Counted from the first letter of the stretch, positions 6,903-46,189 are shown. The stretch is 46,189 nucleotides of DNA from a virus (IMGVR_UViG_3300025769_000214); one strand, 5' to 3'. The notes: generated by a model from the letters alone, not told the origin. A program made the numbers and translations.

Positions 6903-8331
6903 TCCCTACCAATTTTCACTCGTACCAGAAACATTATGGAACCCAAACAAACCACTTCCGGCCCTAGTTTTTTCCCGCATTTTGTCGGGCGTGTCGTATC
7001 AAGACTCGTCATACTTGACGAATTCAGGAAGGACGTTACAGATTCCGTCCGGCACTTCATGGGTGTCAATCGAAACAATCCGCGAAGATATTTCGTCGGC
7101 TCTGGGTTTGATCTTCACCCGGCGCAAAATCCAATATGCGATCCAGAAGTTAAAGGAGAGATCGATGTTAGCTTCTACTTTAATGGAACCAGATACCAAG
7201 GGTCGGTACGGGCTGTTGATGAAGCCGACGATTCCTGCTTCAACAGTAACAACGATTGACCCGGTGAAGGAATTCAAAATACATGCTTACGGCAAAACGT
7301 CAGCTTTCGTTCATGGTGGGATTGCTCATTCTGGAAACGGAGTTGAATGGATCCAACGCCAAGCCGGAGACGTTATGCGTCTCATGGATAGCGTAGCCAA
7401 GAACGGAAACCCGGATGCTTTATTCCGCACAGTTGGAATGTGGCGTGACCGGAAAAGTGTCCGCAAAGTGAACGAACCAGTATACCTTCCTTGGATCGTT
7501 CTGGATATCGACGTACCCGGAGACATGTACCACGCTCACGACACGACCAAAACGATTCTGAGCGACCTGACGGATGCCGGGGTGGACATGGACAGAACCT
7601 TCGTGTCCTTCTCCGGATCCAAGGGGTTTCACATTGCGATTGCCACGTCTCAGATTGGGTCTCCGATCTTCCGGGATTCAGACAATGCGCGTGGATGCAT
7701 GATCAAGTTTGTGAAGTTCCTGACCGATCACAAGTTCGATCCGTCTACCCTGTCACCATTGCAGATGCTCAGACTTACTGGAAGTCAGCACCAGAAAACG
7801 CAGATGTTCAAAACGACTTGGGTGGCCACACGTTTCAACGGCCTGAAGCTCCATTCAATTATTGAGCAGGCCAAATCATTCAAGCCATTCGTCTACCCGG
7901 ATCCTACCGTTGGCGGAGTAGAAGAAGAAATGCATGAAGCATTCGAAGCGAAAGCTGAAGCTCAAGCCAAGGAAGCGTGGGAAGCGTTGCAGGCAGAAGC
8001 GAATCAACCCGCAGGCCCGAAATGGCATAGTCCACGCGGCCCGTTGAAGCAGATCATTGAGAACGGCGTAGCTCGCGGTGAAGATTGGGGAAACAAGTCA
8101 GGGCGTGATTGGGCGGCTTTTACCCTGTCCTGTTATTGCTTGGCGCATCCGGAACAACACAATGCCATGAGAAAAATGCTTGGCATGCTCCCGGAGAATG
8201 AAGCCACGTTTGAAACCGTACATGGAACAATGGACGAATGGAACGAAAGATGTTCTCCGCCGTTGACAGGTAAGGAGATTTCACAGAAAGTCGGATCTGC
8301 CGACCGATACCTACAAAGGAGACAAAAATGA
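6874..8331 (+). CDS. Archaeo-eukaryotic-type primase-polymerase (AEP) with a C-terminal PriCT-like region
   Basis: WIVLDIDVPGD (DxD motif), SGSKGFHIAI (sGxGxH motif), C-terminal GRDWAAFTLSCYCLAH. Confidence 0.7.
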   Translation: MNRFKKKRANPYQFSLVPETLWNPNKPLPALVFSRILSGVSYQDSSYLTNSGRTLQIPSGTSWVSIETIREDISSALGLIFTRRKIQYAIQKLKERSMLASTLMEPDTKGRYGLLMKPTIPASTVTTIDPVKEFKIHAYGKTSAFVHGGIAHSGNGVEWIQRQAGDVMRLMDSVAKNGNPDALFRTVGMWRDRKSVRKVNEPVYLPWIVLDIDVPGDMYHAHDTTKTILSDLTDAGVDMDRTFVSFSGSKGFHIAIATSQIGSPIFRDSDNARGCMIKFVKFLTDHKFDPSTLSPLQMLRLTGSQHQKTQMFKTTWVATRFNGLKLHSIIEQAKSFKPFVYPDPTVGGVEEEMHEAFEAKAEAQAKEAWEALQAEANQPAGPKWHSPRGPLKQIIENGVARGEDWGNKSGRDWAAFTLSCYCLAHPEQHNAMRKMLGMLPENEATFETVHGTMDEWNERCSPPLTGKEISQKVGSADRYLQRRQK

Positions 8332-9153: not shown

Positions 9154-11532
9154 ATGAATCACTTACTGTTTGGATCGGACGAAACTGAAAGGATCGTGGG
9201 CATGGCCGCTCACGGCAATCATCAGATCCGACAATGGATCCGGGACGAGAATGATGTTGTCTCCGATACCATACATGACGTGCATCCTTTTATATACACA
9301 ACGCCGGAAGGAATCGAAGTCATGCGTAGAGCCGTTGGGCCGCATGCCTTTAAGGTCAAGGAAATGTCCGGGGCGAACGAAATGAATCGTCTTGCGGTTT
9401 TCCCCGACATGGATATTTTCAGAGCCGCCCGGAAGGATCTCTACAATGATCCTGTATTCTCCAATTCTGGTAAGAACGAATTCTTCACCTACGGAGACCC
9501 GGTTGCCGCCTATCTGGTACAGTCAGGGAAGACTTTCTTCAAGGGCATGAACCCGCAGACCGTCCACCGGATGCAGGTCGATATTGAGACCTACCGAATC
9601 GATGGGTTTCCAGATGCGAAACTGGATCCAATAACCGTTATTGCGATCAGCGACAATCGTGGATTCGAGAAGGTTCTATTCCAGACCCACACACCGGACG
9701 TTGGCCTTGGGAAGAAGGCTCCGGAATTCGCGGAATGTATGGACAATGAAACACAAATGCTCCGGGAGTTGGTCAAGATCATTCAACGCCGGGATCCTGA
9801 CATTCTGGAAGGCCACAACTTCTTCGCTTACGATATGCCGTATATCACGGAACGTTGCGAACAGCTTGGTGTCAACTTTGCAATCGGCCGGGACTCGAAA
9901 GTTCCCTACTCCTATGCGGCTGAGAAGAAATTCGCAGAGCGGGATATCAAGTACACCAATTTCATTGCAGGCGGTCGATCCATAATCGACACAATGTTCC
10001 TAGCAATCGATTGGGACGTGTACACCCGGAAACTGGAAAACGTCACCCTGAAGGGAGTTGCCAAAACGCTAGGCGTTTCGCCAGAGAACCGAACATACAT
10101 TGAAGGTGCTGACCTTGCTCAAACTTGGTTGGACGATCCAAGCCGGGTTCTTGATTACGCTCTTGATGACGTTCTTGAGACACGCGGGATCTCAGATCAG
10201 TTATGTAGCTCCCAATTTGCCCTGACCCAGATGATGCCCCTTCCATACCAGAAGGTTCACCTATCTGGAAAGGCTTCCGTCATTCAGTCGTTGTTCATTC
10301 GGGAATATCTGCGCGAACGCGCATCCATACCGACTTCCAAGCCCGGTTCTCAGGAATGGGGCGGCTACACCGACATTTTCAAGACAGGCGTGTACGACAA
10401 GGTATGGTACATTGACGTTGCTTCCCTGTACCCGTCGATCATGCTGAACTATGATATCAAGCCTGCTCAAGATCACCTTGGACTGTTTCAGGGGATCCTG
10501 CAAAGCCTGACTGACCTACGCTTCCAGACAAAAGGGGCGATGAAGAAAACGTCGAACAAAACCCGACTCGCTGAACTGGACGCTAGACAGCAGGCGTTCA
10601 AAATCATCATCAACTCATTCTACGGTATGCTTGGTGCAGGCGGGATCGCCCTGTTCGCTACCGTCTCCGAAGCAGACAGGGTTGCCCGTACCGGGCAGGG
10701 ATTGTTGCGGAGAATGATGGAGCTAATCGACTCATCTGGTGCGGAGATTATCGAATGTGATACGGACGGGGTACTGTGTACCGCTCCCCCGGATAAGGAC
10801 TTCTTCAAGGATGGGCCGGACTTCTGCCAATGGGTTACAGACCGAATGCCGGAAGGAATCATTGCAGACTTCGACGGTGCATATCTGAAGATGTTGTCCA
10901 GAGCCAAGAAGAACTATGCCTTGGTTGACCTGAACGGAAAGATCACGATCAAGGGTGGATCATTCAAATCCAGATCGCTTGAACTGCTCTTCCGGGATTA
11001 TATCACCCTGCAACTTGGTAGTCTACTTGACCGCGATTCCGTAGCGTTGCGAAATCGACACATTGACTTCCAGAAGATGATCATGTCTCCAATTGAACCT
11101 GCTCAGATTGCCCGTACCGTCACGCTGAAGGAGAGTTTCGACGTGTATGATGATAAGGTAGCTGAAGGTGGAAACCGCGCCCCGCAGTATGAAATCGGAA
11201 AGGCATTGGTCAGGGGGGAAGGTAGGCGAGTACAAAAAGGTGATCGAATCAGTTATGTAATCTGTGGCACGAAATTGATCTCAAAAGTGAAGTCATATGT
11301 GGACGCTACTGCCCTAGAATTTGTACGTCCCGGAACGCACCACACTAAATTTTACCTTCAGAAGCTACGGAAAATAGCGGAAGGAAGGTTTGGCATGTTC
11401 TTTGCAGAAGAAGATGTAGACAAGGTATTTCCCCGCACACCACCATCGAACACAATCGATATGTTTGGCGGCGTGGAATTCAACGGAGTAGAAATCAACA
11501 ATCAAATCGTACAGCAATATGAGCCTATCTAA
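9154..11532 (+). CDS. Family-B DNA polymerase with 3'-5' exonuclease domain
   Basis: ExoI VDIETY, ExoII GHNFFAYDMPYI, ExoIII YALDDVLET, motif A DVASLYPSIM, motif B KIIINSFYGMLG, motif C ECDTDGV. Confidence 0.9.
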   Translation: MNHLLFGSDETERIVGMAAHGNHQIRQWIRDENDVVSDTIHDVHPFIYTTPEGIEVMRRAVGPHAFKVKEMSGANEMNRLAVFPDMDIFRAARKDLYNDPVFSNSGKNEFFTYGDPVAAYLVQSGKTFFKGMNPQTVHRMQVDIETYRIDGFPDAKLDPITVIAISDNRGFEKVLFQTHTPDVGLGKKAPEFAECMDNETQMLRELVKIIQRRDPDILEGHNFFAYDMPYITERCEQLGVNFAIGRDSKVPYSYAAEKKFAERDIKYTNFIAGGRSIIDTMFLAIDWDVYTRKLENVTLKGVAKTLGVSPENRTYIEGADLAQTWLDDPSRVLDYALDDVLETRGISDQLCSSQFALTQMMPLPYQKVHLSGKASVIQSLFIREYLRERASIPTSKPGSQEWGGYTDIFKTGVYDKVWYIDVASLYPSIMLNYDIKPAQDHLGLFQGILQSLTDLRFQTKGAMKKTSNKTRLAELDARQQAFKIIINSFYGMLGAGGIALFATVSEADRVARTGQGLLRRMMELIDSSGAEIIECDTDGVLCTAPPDKDFFKDGPDFCQWVTDRMPEGIIADFDGAYLKMLSRAKKNYALVDLNGKITIKGGSFKSRSLELLFRDYITLQLGSLLDRDSVALRNRHIDFQKMIMSPIEPAQIARTVTLKESFDVYDDKVAEGGNRAPQYEIGKALVRGEGRRVQKGDRISYVICGTKLISKVKSYVDATALEFVRPGTHHTKFYLQKLRKIAEGRFGMFFAEEDVDKVFPRTPPSNTIDMFGGVEFNGVEINNQIVQQYEPI
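11391..11405 (+). promoter_or_regulatory. Sigma-54-type motif variant inside the polB 3' end
   Basis: TGGCATgttctTTGC; 114 nt before ATG 11519. Confidence 0.4.
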
Positions 11533-13922: not shown

Positions 13923-13972
13923 AAAATTGTTCACCTTCTTCAACAAGTAACAGATCAGGGGTTAATAATAAG
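13923..13972 (+). repeat. 50-nt conserved element, copy A (abuts ATG 13973)
   Basis: aaaattgttcaccttcttc-aac-aagtaaca-g-atcaggggtta-ataataag-ATG. Confidence 0.8.
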
Positions 13973-32960: not shown

Positions 32961-34418
32961 ATGGCAAAGACCATTGGACGGTTCGCACCCGCAGAAGTTC
33001 CAAACCTTCCGGCTAGTTTCGGCAAGTTCCCGAAGGAACAAGACGGGTTCATGGATCGACTGAACCTGATTGCTACGTCAGTTTCACCTTCGACCCTTGA
33101 TTCTATCCGAACGGAAGCGGAATCTGGTAGTCTTGGAAGGCTATACGAGCTTTATGAGAAAATGGTTGCTACGGATGCCCGTATCGGCGGAATTACAGGT
33201 TCGCTGAAGGCAACGGTGTCAGGGTTACCGCTCAAGACGGTACGTGCTGAAGTTGCGAGTGCGGCGGAAGTCCGATTAGCAGAAGATTATCGTGGAGTTG
33301 TCCGAGAAGCCTTTGCACAGATCGATATGCACAGTCTCGTCTCCGATATGGTGGATGTGTATCTGTGGGGAACGAAAGCGTTCCAGATGAAGTGGGTGAT
33401 CGAAGATTATCCACGCGGACGCAAACTGGCATTCCCAACCGTTCAGGTTATACCGGGTCAGAGCTTGCAACAGGAAATGCAACAGCTTCATCCAAACTAC
33501 GGTGAGTTGAAAGTCATCGAAATGAACAACCCCAAGGGAACTTTCTTCTCTACCGTCGATCCCCGCAAAGCATTCGTCGTTACAGACGGAAGTGCCAATG
33601 CGAGACATGATACCGTTGGCGCACTTCGCCGGGTTCTGGGTTGGTGGATCACAAAGATGTACGCTCAACTCTGGTGGATCGAATATGTCGAAAGCTACGG
33701 TCAGCCAATGCGTATCGCCAGATACTCAGAAGAGCAGACTTCGAGCGAACGCGCAGAATTGAAATCGTTCCTACGCGGTATCGGGAGAAACAAGTGGGGG
33801 CTATTCCCAACGGGTGCTGACATTCAGCTTCTCGAAGCGAACCAAGCCGGGAACATCACCACGTTCTCCGATCTGATCAAAGTGGCCAATCACGAAATCG
33901 CGGTTGCGCTCGTTGGACAAACTGGAATCACGCAGGACTCCGCTCAAGGTTCCCGCGCCAAGCTAGAAGTGTTGGACGGTGTTCGTATTGAGATCGTCAT
34001 GCACATTTCGGCAATCGTGCAGAAAGGTCTGGACAGCCTGACCGATTCGATCCTTCGAGTCAACTATGGCGAAGCCTACATTCCGCGTCTGCGTCCAAAG
34101 ACACGCCCAATCATTGCGAAGCCCGGTTCAGCCAAAGAGAAGGTTGAAGTTTGGAACGCTCTTGCAGAAGCAGGCATCCCGGTTGCAATGGATGAGATCC
34201 ATGAGCAGTTAGGAATTCCGCAGGCTGAGATTGGACAGATGGTTCTGTTCAACGGCAAAATCACCGAGATGAAAGATCTCAAGAAAATGCAGGAAGAGAA
34301 AGATGAGTCAAATGATCTTCAGTCTGGACAAGGAGTTGTTTCCGGCGGGGTTGAAACGGAAGGCGGCAACGAGAGCGGCGGATCTAGCGGAACAACGGAT
34401 TCGGGATCGGACTCTTAG
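32961..34418 (+). CDS. Portal protein (Mu gp29 / DUF935-like)
   Basis: 485 aa, with the size, acidic Gly/Ser-rich C-terminus and head-module context expected of a portal. Unlike the rest of the late genes it lies on the + strand. Confidence 0.75.
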   Translation: MAKTIGRFAPAEVPNLPASFGKFPKEQDGFMDRLNLIATSVSPSTLDSIRTEAESGSLGRLYELYEKMVATDARIGGITGSLKATVSGLPLKTVRAEVASAAEVRLAEDYRGVVREAFAQIDMHSLVSDMVDVYLWGTKAFQMKWVIEDYPRGRKLAFPTVQVIPGQSLQQEMQQLHPNYGELKVIEMNNPKGTFFSTVDPRKAFVVTDGSANARHDTVGALRRVLGWWITKMYAQLWWIEYVESYGQPMRIARYSEEQTSSERAELKSFLRGIGRNKWGLFPTGADIQLLEANQAGNITTFSDLIKVANHEIAVALVGQTGITQDSAQGSRAKLEVLDGVRIEIVMHISAIVQKGLDSLTDSILRVNYGEAYIPRLRPKTRPIIAKPGSAKEKVEVWNALAEAGIPVAMDEIHEQLGIPQAEIGQMVLFNGKITEMKDLKKMQEEKDESNDLQSGQGVVSGGVETEGGNESGGSSGTTDSGSDS

Positions 34419-37578: not shown

Positions 37579-37688
37579 AGTCGGGGCGGAAGGTCGCGGG
37601 GTAGTTAAGTATCATTGACAAGTTTCCACTACGCTGTCCCGTGTTGGCAGTTTCACTTGGTCAGAAATTAGCAACCCGTAACTACCGT

Positions 37689-37716
37689 CTTAACACGGCT
37701 TAACAGACCCTTAAAC
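37689..37716 (+). repeat. Three helically phased CTTAA(A)C repeats in the terS upstream region
   Basis: CTTAACA at 37689 and 37699, CTTAAAC at 37710 (10-11 nt period). Confidence 0.6.
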
Positions 37717-37807
37717 TACTGTGTCCCAAGACTTTACAGTTCACCTGATTTGAGCCTAGATTCTTTGAGATGGAGTATAGCACACCGACACCCCACCCCC
37801 CATAGGA

Positions 37808-37824
37808 ATTCACACAATCTTCAT
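37808..37824 (+). repeat. ATTCACACAATCTTCAT copy, 230 nt upstream of terS and 10 nt before the motif copy at 37834
   Basis: Exact 15-mer shared with 35038-35052; 16-mer with one mismatch shared with 39408-39423. Confidence 0.7.
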
Positions 37825-37833
37825 CGGGGAGTT

Positions 37834-37848
37834 TGGCATGGTTTTTGC
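37834..37848 (+). promoter_or_regulatory. Sigma-54-type motif, control-region array copy 1
   Basis: TGGCATggtttTTGC. Confidence 0.45.
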
Positions 37849-37932
37849 TAGTGTGAAGATTCAGCGAAATTTATGTTAAGACCTAGCGAATACCCCATGA
37901 AATACAATTCACATATCATATCTGCTAAAAGT

Positions 37933-37947
37933 TGGCACGATTTTTGC
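37933..37947 (+). promoter_or_regulatory. Sigma-54-type motif, control-region array copy 2
   Basis: TGGCACgatttTTGC. Confidence 0.5.
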
Positions 37948-38048
37948 TGTCCTTCTGATGCATATTTTCCTGTCACTATGTCAGGTTCGGCCATAATCCG
38001 TTGACGTTTTAATGACAGAATGGCAGATTCGAAAGTGGTCTGTAAAGT

Positions 38049-38063
38049 TGGCATGGTTTTTGT
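38049..38063 (+). promoter_or_regulatory. Sigma-54-type motif, control-region array copy 3
   Basis: TGGCATggtttTTGT. Confidence 0.4.
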
Positions 38064-38109
38064 GGGAAGGGGCTGTCAATTCAGCCATTGAATGTAAATG
38101 ATTTGAAGC

Positions 38110-38763
38110 CTATCGGCCTGAATGATCGCGGCGGAATGCAACCCAAGTAACGGCCTGCAATGCGTTGGCTGTTTTGTACCCAAGGTGAAGAGCGGCGGCT
38201 CTGTATGCATCGGCTATCTTCCGGTATCGGTTCGCGGTTATGCTCAGACGTTGGTGAGATGTATCGGTCGATCCCAACGCTATACCGATTGCGTGACGGT
38301 CAATTGTGACGGCATCGGCAAAACTCGGTTTTGCTATGTTGATCAGGAAATTGTCCGTCTTTGTCCCGGCCGTGAATTGTTCCCGGACGTTAACCAACGG
38401 AGTTGGGCCGGACAAGATACGGAATGCCTTGGCCTTGTTTTGGCCGTATGTTGATACCGTGATTGCGTCAAAATCGATCCCGGCACAAAATCCCTTGATC
38501 AAGGTTTCGGCATCGGCAACGTTGGTCTCCCAACTGCATGCAGGCGAAAGAGCGGAAACAACTCCGGCAACTTGCGAGAGTGAAAAACGTTCTTGGCATT
38601 CCGGCATTGCGGCCAAGTCTTTGCAGATTGCGTTCGCTACATAATACCAACGGTTCGCGGTCGTTTTATCGTCCGTTGTTACGGTCGAATTGTGAAACCG
38701 AACGATTTCGGCTTTCATACCTTCAACATCTTTCACGCGCTTTTTATATAGGTCTAACATCAA
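38110..38763 (-). CDS. Conserved-looking phage protein of unknown function (leftward early gene)
   Basis: 217-aa globular-looking ORF (WYYVANAICKDLA...VVSALSPACSWETN...VTIDRHA); the only - strand motif copy (39219-39233) lies upstream. Confidence 0.6.
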   Translation of the reverse strand: MMLDLYKKRVKDVEGMKAEIVRFHNSTVTTDDKTTANRWYYVANAICKDLAAMPECQERFSLSQVAGVVSALSPACSWETNVADAETLIKGFCAGIDFDAITVSTYGQNKAKAFRILSGPTPLVNVREQFTAGTKTDNFLINIAKPSFADAVTIDRHAIGIALGSTDTSHQRLSITANRYRKIADAYRAAALHLGYKTANALQAVTWVAFRRDHSGR

Positions 38764-38789
38764 ATTTACCGTGTTTTGGTGTACTTACT

Positions 38790-38801
38790 GTATCGGCCGG
38801 A
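38790..38801 (-). repeat. 12-mer TCCGGCCGATAC (read on the - strand)
   Basis: + strand GTATCGGCCGGA; intergenic between the two leftward genes. Confidence 0.7.
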
Positions 38802-38823
38802 ATCCCGGCCAACTTAAATGAAT

Positions 38824-39075
38824 CTAAAAATTTATCCCGATTACCTGAATTGAATTCAATTTCGGATCGCAATAATTGTCCCGGAGTTGGTTCAATGCAT
38901 CGGCCGGATTTTGGGCCTTGATGATTTTGAATCGGTTTTCACGTTCTCCGTACAGACCTGCAAAACTGAAATCGACTGAAAATGTAAACATGATTTTGAT
39001 CGTTTGGTTGATTGTTTCTCCCTTGTATACGGTATCGGCCGGAATGATCCCGAAATTAAGCACTTCACACAACAT
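38824..39075 (-). CDS. Hypothetical protein (leftward early gene)
   Basis: 83-aa ORF, first downstream of the - strand motif copy. Confidence 0.45.
   Translation of the reverse strand: MLCEVLNFGIIPADTVYKGETINQTIKIMFTFSVDFSFAGLYGERENRFKIIKAQNPADALNQLRDNYCDPKLNSIQVIGINF
39032..39043 (-). repeat. 12-mer TCCGGCCGATAC (read on the - strand)
   Basis: + strand GTATCGGCCGGAAT; the 14-mer is identical to 38790-38803. Confidence 0.7.
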
Positions 39076-39196
39076 TCACATAACTCGCAATAACGGACTA
39101 TTGAAGCCGTAGGATTGCGTCTAACGAACGCAAATTATTCCGGTAGTTTACTATTCAGGAAAATAGATACGCGATTCTGAGCGATTTCGACATTTC

Positions 39197-39211
39197 TGGC
39201 ACGATTATTGT
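39197..39211 (+). promoter_or_regulatory. Sigma-54-type motif, control-region array copy 4
   Basis: TGGCACgattaTTGT; 16-mer identical to the copy at 39388. Confidence 0.5.
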
Positions 39212-39218
39212 GGGTTAA

Positions 39219-39233
39219 GCAAATTTAGTGCCA
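39219..39233 (-). promoter_or_regulatory. Only reverse-strand sigma-54-type motif; candidate promoter of leftward genes 38824..39075 and 38110..38763
   Basis: The - strand reads TGGCACtaaatTTGC. Confidence 0.5.
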
Positions 39234-39387
39234 AATAACCGATTATGAAGATTCAATGAATGGGTTAAGTTGCGGAAACCTTTGGCCGATACATTGAATT
39301 CATACAGTCAACCTTCACCAAATTTTGGGTGTCCAATATACAAGACAGTTCGTCTTCATACTATCTTCACAAAGCAGATCCCTGTTT

Positions 39388-39402
39388 TGGCACGATTATT
39401 GT
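39388..39402 (+). promoter_or_regulatory. Sigma-54-type motif, control-region array copy 5
   Basis: TGGCACgattaTTGT. Confidence 0.5.
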
Positions 39403-39407
39403 GTGTC

Positions 39408-39423
39408 TTCACACGATCTTCAT
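39408..39423 (+). repeat. TTCACACgATCTTCAT copy just downstream of the motif copy at 39388
   Basis: 15 of 16 identical to 37809-37824. Confidence 0.6.
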
Positions 39424-39547
39424 GTATCAAAATGAGAATCCTGTATCAAAATGGGACTTGAAATGAGACCCGATCTGAGACCGGAGAAATGCTTTCTGAC
39501 CGTCACCGGAGAAATGATGACCCGGCACGACCGTATCAGGAGAAATG
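39423..39547. repeat. Iteron-like direct repeats in a non-coding region
   Basis: TGTATCAAAATG at 39423 and 39442; CCGGAGAAATG at 39481 and 39506; CAGGAGAAATG at 39537; AAATGAGA at 39431 and 39461 with variant AAATGGGA at 39450. Confidence 0.6.
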
Positions 39548-39606
39548 AAAACGCATTCTACCCGCGACAGAATCACCCTATACAGGGAATTGAGACCGTT
39601 TCGGGG

Positions 39607-39655
39607 AAAATTGTTCACCTTCTTATATACATTCAATCAGGGGTTCTATAAGTAA
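39607..39655 (+). repeat. 50-nt conserved element, copy C (no adjacent start codon; 11 nt upstream of the motif copy at 39667)
   Basis: aaaattgttcaccttctt-atatacattca-atcaggggtt-c-tataagta. Confidence 0.75.
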
Positions 39656-39666
39656 CCGGGCAATCT

Positions 39667-39681
39667 TGGCACGATGCTTGT
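39667..39681 (+). promoter_or_regulatory. Sigma-54-type promoter candidate for the early gene array
   Basis: TGGCACgatgcTTGT; 33 nt before ATG 39714. Confidence 0.6.
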
Positions 39682-39713
39682 AGAGTACCAGAGAAACTAA
39701 CCAGAGAAATTCC

Positions 39714-39899
39714 ATGCTAGTAGATACCAAAACCAAACAGCCAGTAAGCCTACCATACCAGACCACAGATTTTCGTGGCGATCCGATCACGGTGGTAGGG
39801 TTCACCGCCCCAAGGCATGCAGGCAGTACCGGGAGAATTCAGACCAAGGAAGGAAATGAGTATTTCCCCGGCGTAGCGAATTTGAAGATAGTAGAGTAA
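39714..39899 (+). CDS. Hypothetical early protein
   Basis: First ORF after the motif copy at 39667. Confidence 0.5.
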   Translation: MLVDTKTKQPVSLPYQTTDFRGDPITVVGFTAPRHAGSTGRIQTKEGNEYFPGVANLKIVE

Positions 39900-45271: not shown

Positions 45272-46189
45272 AAAATACATTGGTGGAGCCGATGCCGCAT
45301 CAATCCTTGGCCTGAACGATTTCCAATCCGTACAGAAATGTTGGCGGAAGAAAGTCGGTCTGGAAACGGATGACGTGGACAATAGACATATCCGCCGGGG
45401 AAACCGGATGGAATCTGTCATTGAGCAGTATTGTATCGATGAACTGGATGGGGATATCAACTCCGTCCAAATGTTCGAACGGTACGGTACTCCGCAGGCG
45501 GTCGCTAACCTAGCTTCATACAACGAAGCAATGAACGGCCCGGCACATGCTATGGTCGGAGTTCAGCGTCCACAGATCACCGTTCTGCATCCTGACCTAC
45601 CGTACTGCGGCGGACACCCTGACGGGCTGACTGACAAGTACGTGTGGGAATTCAAGGCTCCGGCCATGCGGAATTTCAAGTACATTGAGAGCTACGGTGT
45701 GTCCCTGTCGTGGGTCATTCAGGTTCAGTATTACATGTGGATCACGAAGATCCCTGAAGCTCGAATCTGTGTCTGGAATTACGACGAATGGGAACCGATG
45801 ATCGTCCGGATCAAACCAGACCGGAGACTGTTCAAATCCTTCGACGAATTGATGCCTGCATTCTGGTTTCATGTTGAGACTCAAACTGAGCCTGACTTTG
45901 AAGGATTGCAGGACGTTGGCCACATCACGGAGAACGATCTACTGGATCTGATTCTGGACGATTACTGTCTTCAGAAGGAGACAAAGTTCGAAGCAGAGAC
46001 CCAAGTGAAGCTCCTGAAGGCCACTATTGAGACGCACCTTCCCGGCTTTGGTGACTTCGAAACGGACAATTTCACGATCCGCAACAAGGAACAGCAAAGG
46101 TTTGGCACGAAGTTTGCAACTCTTACTATTAGACACAAAGAAACAGTCGAAGCCAAAAGTTGGCTGAAGACTCTTCGCGAAGAACAGGC
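45261..46189 (+). CDS. YqaJ / lambda-Exo-like 5'-3' exonuclease (runs off the window end and continues at 128..185)
   Basis: Hand translation gives MDRRKYIGGADAASILGLNDF..., HPDG...WEFKAP (a D...E-x-K nuclease core). It is absent from the ORF track because no stop occurs before the window end. Total length 328 aa across the junction. Confidence 0.75.
   Translation, partial: MDRRKYIGGADAASILGLNDFQSVQKCWRKKVGLETDDVDNRHIRRGNRMESVIEQYCIDELDGDINSVQMFERYGTPQAVANLASYNEAMNGPAHAMVGVQRPQITVLHPDLPYCGGHPDGLTDKYVWEFKAPAMRNFKYIESYGVSLSWVIQVQYYMWITKIPEARICVWNYDEWEPMIVRIKPDRRLFKSFDELMPAFWFHVETQTEPDFEGLQDVGHITENDLLDLILDDYCLQKETKFEAETQVKLLKATIETHLPGFGDFETDNFTIRNKEQQRFGTKFATLTIRHKETVEAKSWLKTLREEQ
46063..46189. 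repeat. Terminal duplication, copy 2 (identical to 1-127)
   Basis: Same 127 nt as the window start; an ORF runs through it in phase. Confidence 0.9.
46103..46117 (+). promoter_or_regulatory. Duplicate of the 41..55 motif copy (terminal duplication)
   Basis: TGGCACgaagtTTGC inside the 127-nt repeat. Confidence 0.4.

Follow-up and report, generated by a model that had tools for sequence, protein, structure and literature searches.

Stacked sigma-54-type promoter motifs in the control region of an uncultured phage genome and a similar unit in an unrelated phage family

Introduction

Bacterial promoters of the sigma-54 (RpoN) class share the -24/-12 consensus YTGGCACGR-N3-TTGCW, with a core of TGGCACG-N4-TTGC(W). 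Transcription from them depends on rpoN, starts about 12 nt after the -12 element and is shut until an ATP-driven AAA+ activator, usually bound upstream, opens it; normally only a few operons, for stress, nitrogen and motility, are under sigma-54. Considered here is a stretch of 46,189 nt from a virus (IMGVR_UViG_3300025769_000214), referred to below in its full length as the window, in which matches to a motif of this type, TGGCAYG-N4-TTG, are concentrated in a control region (37834-39681) between the two oppositely directed arms of the gene map.

Several described phage arrangements have some of the properties of this region. In coliphage 186 the promoters pR and pL stand face to face and form a switch that works by transcriptional interference. 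The primary origin of T7 consists of the tandem promoters phi1.1A and phi1.1B followed by an AT-rich region. Stacked early promoters are known from the left end of LUZ19, where five host promoters stand in tandem (PMC10914365). Pseudomonas phage YuA has one sigma-54-like promoter (P015), seen again by ONT-cappable-seq, its other promoters being sigma-70-like or phage-specific (PMC10914365, citing Ceyssens et al. 2008). No account of a phage whose programme runs on sigma-54 promoters came up in a full-text literature search; YuA was the single phage case found.

Distribution of the motif in the window

On the + strand of the control region, TGGCAYG-N4-TTG starts at 37834, 37933, 38049, 39197, 39388 and 39667, with spacings between successive copies of 99, 116, 1148, 191 and 279 nt. 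The original prediction for this DNA, made from the sequence by a single reader, had described six rightward copies, and its coordinates were exact, as were those of two pairs that match beyond the core: TTGGCATGGTTTTTG is found in the window only at 37833 and 38048, and TGGCACGATTATTGTG only at 39197 and 39388. Its term "tandem array" did not hold up. Tandem Repeats Finder reported no tandem array over the copies, the 80 nt 3' of each are mutually unrelated (z from -1.0 to 1.7), and only a core of 16-19 nt is common to them. The "array" is rather two triplets separated by a leftward cassette with a DUF7178 gene, and neither a tandem repeat nor an iteron array. Three same-sense copies lie within 231 nt and three within 486 nt, a spacing like that of tandem early promoters. 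The 39197-39667 triplet reads straight into the early genes, from which the 37834-38049 triplet is separated by the DUF7178 cassette. Absent from the earlier description were a seventh copy on the - strand (TGGCACTAAATTTGC, 39233-39219), which has one mismatch and opposes the 39197 copy face to face, bringing the control region to seven sigma-54-type copies (six rightward and one leftward); a C-rich block, here called the C-box (37780-37809); and nearby iteron-like repeats.

The whole window contains 18 matches, where dinucleotide shuffles lead one to expect 0.22 +/- 0.46, and not one is on the - strand. Its two ends overlap exactly over 127 bp (1-127 = 46063-46189), so that it represents a complete circular assembly with a unique length of 46,062 bp, and because the matches at 41 and 46103 are the same site within this overlap, the number of unique copies is 17 (strand bias p = 1.5e-5). 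Six copies in 1848 nt compare with 1.4 expected at the density of the rightward arm (Poisson P = 0.003). The cluster is real and far beyond chance, and it is conserved in relatives.

Every copy sits either in the rightward arm or in the control region. The rightward arm runs from 39.7 kb over the assembly junction to about 15 kb and encodes SSB, an Erf/Rad52 annealing protein, an SF2 helicase, a primase-like protein, a family B DNA polymerase and ribonucleotide reductase, together with many small open reading frames (ORFs) without known function; most of the early ORFs belong to no known family. The leftward arm, from 37.6 down to 16 kb, encodes terS, TerL, a protease, a capsid protein, tail proteins and, on the opposite strand, a Mu-type portal. 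Over the 22 kb from 15 to 37.5 kb there is no copy of the motif on either strand. Outside the control region most copies lie 42-84 nt before rightward ATG codons (278, 2356, 4634, 9154, 42629 and 44429), and the one at 2299 directly follows an intrinsic terminator with a 13-bp stem (2260-2291). Sigma-70-type sites are as numerous as expected from shuffles, with no enrichment in or near the region. TAnnTTTG sites of the Bacteroidetes type are if anything depleted (12 against 19.9 expected), and a TTTG scan likewise gave no enrichment. The motif behaves as a promoter of the rightward arm, since it is strand-pure and gene-proximal and no other promoter class is enriched.

Likeness to sigma-54 promoters

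All six control-region copies, like the 17 unique ones genome-wide, have the -24/-12 core at its fixed spacing. The likeness extends to positions that were not forced by the search, with T at -27 in 16 of the 17, A or G at -19 in 16 and A or T at -11 in 13, corresponding to the Y, R and W of the extended consensus. In the GC doublet at -13/-12 the G is invariant, while the second position is C in nine copies, T in six and A in two; within the control region C is found in two (37834 and 37933).

The best-fitting reading, which may equally well prove right or wrong, is that the copies are sigma-54-class promoters read by the host's sigma-54 RNA polymerase, and that from two stacks they would drive the whole rightward early/replication arm. 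The stack at 39197, 39388 and 39667 would head the early arm, with 39667 as the proximal promoter of its first ORF and 39197 and 39388 as upstream promoters whose transcripts would cross a repeat-rich untranslated leader. The stack at 37834, 37933 and 38049 would belong to a conserved unit of C-box, copies and convergent copy bordering the packaging genes. Between the two stacks, in the window as in its relative L122, stands the leftward DUF7178 cassette, whose promoter is probably the leftward copy (39233 in the window; the counterpart in L122 is equally well placed). The first stack would then fire antisense through the cassette, opposing it by convergent transcription; this triplet aims into the 3' end of a leftward gene because the cassette lies between both parts of the unit. 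As no + strand terminator is predicted between 38049 and 39714, transcripts from the first stack could also run on into the early arm. Stacking as such would offer several chances to capture scarce sigma-54 holoenzyme and fire. What the sequences show is the motif, with its distribution, conservation and anatomy; its reading by this holoenzyme, the places where transcripts would start and end, and the way in which initiation would be activated without a phage-encoded activator are inferred.

A stack of early promoters was among the functions originally proposed, and it fares best in so far as the motif acts as a rightward-arm promoter, the second triplet heads that arm, and an unrelated phage family described below has a parallel placement. 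It does not account for the first triplet, which has a leftward cassette behind it, or for antisense copies in two relatives.

The control region in relatives

Relatives are contigs from other samples, found through TerL homologues. Those with TerL 46-59% identical keep the C-box, and wherever the contig extends past it at least one recognisable copy of the motif adjoins (degenerate in L125). In most of them the cluster is at the same border and in the same sense, in surrounding DNA that cannot be aligned; in an alignment of the sequences upstream of terS only the C-box and a short GTCGCGG block next to terS come into register. The C-box has the form CCCC-N-CCCCCCATA-NN-AAT and stands 1-37 nt upstream of the first rightward copy wherever it is found. 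In the window, where its CCCCCATA is unique, it aligns with those of L122, L129 and L125 and is partly invariant among them; it is also present in L128, L212, L361 and the unrelated family. No palindrome and no match to the consensus for integration host factor (IHF) was found in it.

L122/L123 (TerL 59% identical) has the same layout as the window. In L122 four full copies and one partial copy, 26, 26 and 34 nt apart, follow a C-box between the DUF7178 stop codon and terS, in the same sense as in the window, and a canonical intrinsic terminator is located directly after DUF7178, before the cluster. Ahead of its cassette (a small gene and DUF7178) is a face-to-face pair (7074/7038), past which come about 17 GTGAAG units and three CCACCGGAGAATTCAA repeats. 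L128 has a C-box, two rightward copies and an overlapping leftward copy (883/849), with no DUF7178 cassette at the position that it has in the window. The C-box of L129 abuts one rightward copy, with a leftward copy 166 nt off, and that of L212 also abuts one copy; the L361 contig stops 20 nt past its C-box. L125 (47%) keeps the C-box with the degenerate copy and has a second unit as well, which is located in an intergenic gap and runs antisense to its neighbors; in it a good copy is accompanied by five CTTCAC units and four GACCGTCACCGGAAAAA repeats.

As to copy number and spacing, a comparison suggested by the original prediction, rightward copies at the C-box number from one to four, and those of L122 are 26, 26 and 34 nt apart. 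Relatives that lack the copies and keep the flanking genes were to count against that prediction. The only one of this kind is the distant L213 (TerL 42% identical), in which DUF7178 and terS are kept, the motif is absent and the intergenic region has no analogous repeat cluster, whereas the relatives at 46-59% keep the C-box.

The spacing in L122 also bears on the idea, likewise put forward originally, that the cluster is a decoy titrating host sigma-54 holoenzyme off host genes. This holoenzyme is scarce and forms stable closed complexes, and several consensus-grade sites close together might serve such an end. However, copies 26 nt apart, as in L122, are too close for joint holoenzyme occupancy, judging from footprints; the cluster contributes only six of a genome's 17 sites, and in any case the dispersed promoters would have a titrating effect; L129 and L212 have one copy only; and a decoy would have no need of strict single-strand orientation. 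A role as a sink is highly improbable.

An unrelated marine family and other viral contigs

A metagenome scan for the C-box and then the motif found a family of marine phages of ~34 kb, here called the L341 family (L334, L335, L337, L339, L341, L345, L349 and L350, plus L299 from IMG/VR). Its genes include a T4/T7-type terminase, an SU10-type portal, a T7-type primase-helicase and a family A polymerase (PolA). The metagenome stretches of this family share no protein with the window at E < 1e-5, and L299 has a distant PDDEXK nuclease and ribonucleotide reductase in common with it. GC content is 37%, and Shine-Dalgarno (SD) sequences precede nine of 14 genes in L341; in the window, SD-like sequences are found before two of 34.

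The unit in this family lies between a leftward terminase arm and a rightward replication arm, and the motif is confined to the control region. Its order is ATACCCCCTCCCCCCATATCAAT, a rightward copy at +6, an overlapping leftward copy at +39, a rightward copy at +69 and another at +121 or +133, with palindromes and a very AT-rich stretch of roughly 60 nt following the cluster. Among seven members, 47 of the 50 motif columns are invariant, as against 18 of 46 in the spacer between copies 2 and 3, which exists in two unalignable versions. Invariant motif columns beside a replaced spacer point to selection on the copies themselves. Both phage families have a unit in which the C-box is accompanied by one to four rightward copies and by a convergent leftward one, the latter at anything from about 15 nt to about 1.8 kb from the C-box. 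The presence of the same 14-nt motif in phages with seemingly different hosts, to go by their SD frequencies (2/34 against 9/14), argues for a broadly conserved reader such as sigma-54 and not for a phage-specific factor.

Four further viral contigs, unrelated, have 6-17 copies of the motif within a few kb: L026 (IMGVR_UViG_3300020160_002556), L040 (IMGVR_UViG_3300002520_000024), L031 and L032. Many of these copies are stacked 26-60 nt apart or stand face to face, the tandem stacks of L026 and L040 having spacings of 26-35 nt. Stacks of sigma-54-type promoters may, on such patterns, be common in uncultured phages. A paired-motif scan of IMG/VR gave at least 120 loci. Most of these are iteron-like arrays or terminal inverted repeats, and no locus is related to the window by protein. 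The pattern of C-box plus motif was too loose for IMG/VR, where nearly all matches were due to chance and L299 was the sole credible one; in GTDB genomes it gave seven single-site matches resembling chance or ordinary host promoters.

Face-to-face copies and the leftward cassette

Every phage with the unit also has a convergent leftward copy. At the level of sequence, face-to-face pairs are found at 39197(+)/39233(-) in the window, at 7074/7038 in L122, at 883/849 in L128 and at +6/+39 in seven L341-family contigs. The two copies overlap in all of these; in L129 they are 166 nt apart. In overlapping pairs each predicted start falls within the opposite promoter, and the two should therefore not be occupied at once.

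Such pairs would suit another function that had been suggested, the production of antisense or non-coding RNA. The first triplet, which does face the 3' end of the leftward DUF7178 gene as originally described, would on this explanation mainly make antisense RNA or convergent transcription against the leftward cassette and readthrough, and would time or silence DUF7178 and shield terS and terL from early leftward transcription, as a face-to-face switch of the pR/pL kind. In its favor, the window has no canonical terminator after DUF7178; against it, L122 has one there, making insulation needless, and the cluster persists in L128 and the L341 family with no cassette or other gene opposite. No family match was found in the region with Rfam (E up to 1), and two putative leader or antisense RNAs fold no more stably than shuffles (z +1.1 and +0.2). 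The structured RNA and terminator that characterize sigma-54-dependent small-RNA genes of the Qrr, GlmY or CrcZ type were not found either. An unstructured antisense RNA is possible for the first triplet; a structured non-coding RNA is disfavored by the lack of an Rfam match, of stable folding and of a terminator. As the main function of the triplet, antisense action is unlikely.

Points that weigh against a purely promoter role

Several observations count against the assignment of the copies to host sigma-54 polymerase as promoters of the early arm. As originally noted, 39667 is the only one of the six rightward copies with a gene directly behind it, whose ATG (39714) is 47 nt from the first base of the motif. 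The first triplet opposes a genuine leftward gene. T replaces C at -12 in four of the six control-region copies, and C is missing there in eight of 17 genome-wide. The presence of rpoN in the host is presumed. No bacterial enhancer-binding protein (bEBP) or sigma factor was found among 50 ORFs scanned with Pfam, in precomputed domains, or with PHROGs or signature motifs; no Sigma54_activat domain is present in the phage proteins, and no frame of at least 45 aa has a GAFTGA motif or a bEBP-type Walker A. Upstream of the copies, neither a common enhancer element nor an IHF site was seen. With no recognisable phage activator, either an activator of the host or a phage mechanism of an unknown kind has to provide activation.

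Part of this evidence could also mean that a phage-specified factor, for example a small unrecognised sigma-like or appropriator protein, reads the motif and that its likeness to sigma-54 sites is convergent. The bEBP normally needed by sigma-54 is not encoded by the phage, most early ORFs are without a known family, and C at -12 is often replaced, all as would be expected in that case. It is harder to reconcile with a match that reaches unforced consensus positions, with the same motif in unrelated phages that have no detectable small protein in common with the window in the sequences compared, and with the lack of any other visible host-type promoter from which such a factor could be expressed first. 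This alternative is considered quite improbable.

Other difficulties come from the relatives and concern the unit as a whole. The homologous copies of L129 and L125 run antisense to every gene called next to them, and in the L341 family a TTGACA-type promoter and an SD sequence of its own, about 200 nt past the cluster, serve the first rightward gene; together these suggest that the unit may not serve messenger RNA production. It is not gene-proximal in either phage family, and dense iterons adjoin it. The C-box, always close to the first copy, is common to phages with unrelated terS-position proteins and apparently different hosts. A model of promoters only does not account for the C-box and the iterons.

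These points are taken up by an explanation in which the conserved unit (C-box, clustered copies, face-to-face partner and iterons) is part of a replication origin. As at the T7 primary origin, transcription starting in the cluster would open or prime it, and for leftward transcripts an R-loop could be stabilised by the G-rich strand of the C-box. Besides the distance from genes in both families, such an origin would explain why L125 and L129 keep the composition of the unit and not its orientation relative to neighboring genes. Adjoining iterons are dense (the GTGAAG units of L122, and the CTTCAC and ACCGGAGAAAT repeats of the window), the palindromes and AT-rich stretch of the L341 family are in a fitting place after the cluster, and a position between divergent arms is the usual site of a phage origin. 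On the other side, the window has no strongly AT-rich unwinding element (minimum GC 0.34 per 80 nt), no initiator protein was identified, the variable distance from leftward copy to C-box is a poor fit to a fixed priming geometry, and elsewhere in the genome the motif is clearly an ordinary gene-proximal promoter. The recurrence of the C-box, the unit's distance from genes and the adjoining iterons keep an origin alive as an explanation, if a rather unlikely one.

The cluster is better described as two triplets and a leftward partner within a conserved C-box unit. A wider claim can be built on this, namely that a portable unit of C-box, stacked sigma-54-type promoters and overlapping face-to-face partner acts across unrelated lineages as a sigma-54-based developmental or origin switch, and that in the lineage of the window the whole early/replication programme runs on sigma-54 without a recognisable activator. 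In this full form it is doubtful. If it were true, either sigma-54 closed complexes would be opened in a new way encoded by the phage, or the phage would depend obligatorily on a host stress-activated activator. More generally, a whole early/replication arm on sigma-54 without an activator of its own would tie infection to the signalling state of the host, or would require an unknown way of unlocking sigma-54 polymerase. Either outcome would be new phage biology and could give an orthogonal expression tool. The unit of C-box and stacked promoters may be a widespread and unrecognised control element in uncultured phages, and it offers a concrete test sequence.

Comparison with described systems

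The element combines known kinds of component (sigma-54 promoters, tandem early promoters and face-to-face promoters) and is not categorically new; its setting is unusual. With bacterial sigma-54 promoters the copies share the core, the exact spacing and the flanking preferences at -27, -19 and -11; they are asymmetric and directional and, outside the control region, located upstream of genes. They differ in the frequent replacement of C at -12 (by T or A), in having neither an activator gene nor a recognisable enhancer, and in apparently serving a whole phage arm instead of a few stress or nitrogen operons; their dependence on rpoN is putative. The sigma-54-like promoter of YuA (P015) is, like them, a phage promoter assigned to this class, but it is one such promoter as against 17 sites and what appears to be the entire early/replication programme.

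A parallel to the geometry is found in the A1/A2/A3 promoters of T7 and P002-P006 of LUZ19 (PMC10914365), where, as here, three same-sense promoters within about 250-500 nt head an early unit at a border in the gene map. The copies in the window are of the sigma-54 and not the sigma-70 type, however; one triplet is cut off by a leftward cassette, and the unit includes a convergent partner and a C-rich box. The face-to-face pair resembles pR/pL of coliphage 186 in its opposed promoters between oppositely oriented gene blocks and in the colliding transcripts or complexes, although interference in the window is predicted from the sequence. Its -12 elements are only 4-7 nt apart, so that the promoters overlap outright, both are sigma-54-type and there is no known repressor. 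As in the primary origin of T7, tandem promoters are found without a gene directly behind them, and the L341 family, with its T7-type replication genes, has an AT-rich stretch after the cluster. The window, in contrast, has no marked AT-rich element, its promoters are of a host type and an origin role for them is putative.

Other features of the control region

Coordinates and local details are collected in Table 1.

Table 1. Features of the control region of the window, listed from terS rightward.
Feature	Coordinates	Strand	Match or remark
terS-like gene, N-terminal helix-turn-helix	36904..37578	-	Pfam HTH_23/HTH_28; TerL directly downstream
C-box GCACACCGACACCCCACCCCCCATAGGAAT, conserved C-rich block just 5' of first rightward copy	37780..37809	+	
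Sigma-54-type copy 1 TGGCATGGTTTTTGCT	37834..37849	+	
Sigma-54-type copy 2 TGGCACGATTTTTGCT, full TGGCACG-N4-TTGCW match	37933..37948	+	
Sigma-54-type copy 3 TGGCATGGTTTTTGTG, T for C at -12, aims into 3' end of DUF7178	38049..38064	+	
DUF7178 gene, leftward cassette between the triplets	38110..38763	-	Pfam PF23802, E = 3.8e-40; phrog_3842
83-aa ORF upstream of DUF7178, coding status uncertain	38824..39075	-	No family hit; not conserved in relatives
Sigma-54-type copy 4 TGGCACGATTATTGTG, rightward half of face-to-face pair	39197..39212	+	
Seventh copy TGGCACTAAATTTGC, faces copy 4, aims at 83-aa/DUF7178 cassette	39219..39233	-	
GAAGAT/CTTCAC iteron-like repeats	39243..39423	both	
Sigma-54-type copy 5 TGGCACGATTATTGTG, downstream flank conserved in L125	39388..39403	+	
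Three (GA)CCG..ACCGGAGAAAT repeats, 25 and 31 nt apart, 120-190 nt upstream of copy 6	39473..39548	+	
47-nt element AAATTGTTCACCTTCTT-N11-13-ATCAGGGGTT-N2-ATAAG(TA), ends 12 nt before copy 6	39608..39654	+	
Sigma-54-type copy 6 TGGCACGATGCTTGTA, predicted proximal promoter of first rightward ORF	39667..39682	+	
First ORF of rightward (early/replication) arm	39714..39899	+	Gene call in identical contig L126

The terS gene is the first of the leftward packaging/structural arm and is conserved in L122, L125, L128, L129, L131, L212 and L213. About 20 nt before it, a short - strand block, CTACCCCGCGAC, is conserved in L122 and L129. The C-box was also considered as a pac or cos site read by a shared terS; this was rejected for now, because the two phage families have unrelated proteins at the terS position.

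The DUF7178 protein of the window is 46% identical to its L122 homolog and gave nothing significant against PDB sequences. At the equivalent position the cassette is absent from L128, L129 and the L341 family. Where the window has the 83-aa ORF, L122 has an unrelated gene of 149 aa. An element like GGGATCATTCCGGCCGATAC is found four times on the - strand in and around the cassette (38111-38130, 38791-38810, 38896-38917 and 39033-39052), two of the four copies about 50-60 nt before a possible start codon; L122 has GGCCAGACGGTCA instead, immediately 5' of both cassette genes. Only short or implausible ORFs follow the 39197 and 39388 copies, as had been noticed originally, and these are conserved in no relative; terS and DUF7178 are the only products of the region conserved as proteins.

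The putative untranslated leader behind the 39197 and 39388 copies is rich in repeats. Its GAAGAT/CTTCAC repeats have a positional equivalent in the GTGAAG units of L122. The flank of the 39388 copy is CTTCACACGATCTTCAT, and TTCACACGATCTTCAT is found at 39408, just 3' of it. Next in the anatomy of the region, GTATCAAAATG occurs twice, followed by the ACCGGAGAAAT-type repeats; repeats homologous to the latter are present in three copies in L122 and in four plus two copies in L125. The region closes with the 39667 copy, two ACCAGAGAAA repeats and the first early ORF. The 47-nt element is found three times in the window, at 13924-13970 (+), 32507-32461 (-) and 39608-39654 (+), against 0.16 expected for its first half. 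An ATG follows immediately at 13924 and 32507, and none of the relatives examined has the element, which may represent a second class of promoter or a signal for translation start.

Genome context and possible host

The closest cultured relatives of the window phage are phages of Salinibacter ruber, with TerL 34% and PolB 38% identical. Together with the few SD-like sequences, this points to, and does not prove, a host in the Bacteroidota/Rhodothermota group. In Salinibacter phage M8CRM-1 the motif is not enriched (7 against 5.1 expected). A comparison of TerL with one genome per GTDB species gave no prophage or host clue, and the top match in IMG/VR was only 38% identical. A nucleotide search with 37600-39720 against 50,697 phage records gave no match, and neither DUF7178 as bait for related loci in IMG/VR nor an exact look-up returned anything.

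A few minor observations concern the map. A YqaJ-type exonuclease gene spans the assembly junction. The Mu-type portal gene and two small ORFs (32961-34418, +) oppose the rest of the structural arm, and the same inversion is found in all relatives examined. In L125 there is, judged by eye, a putative tRNA-like sequence between terS and TerL, at about 9850-9990.

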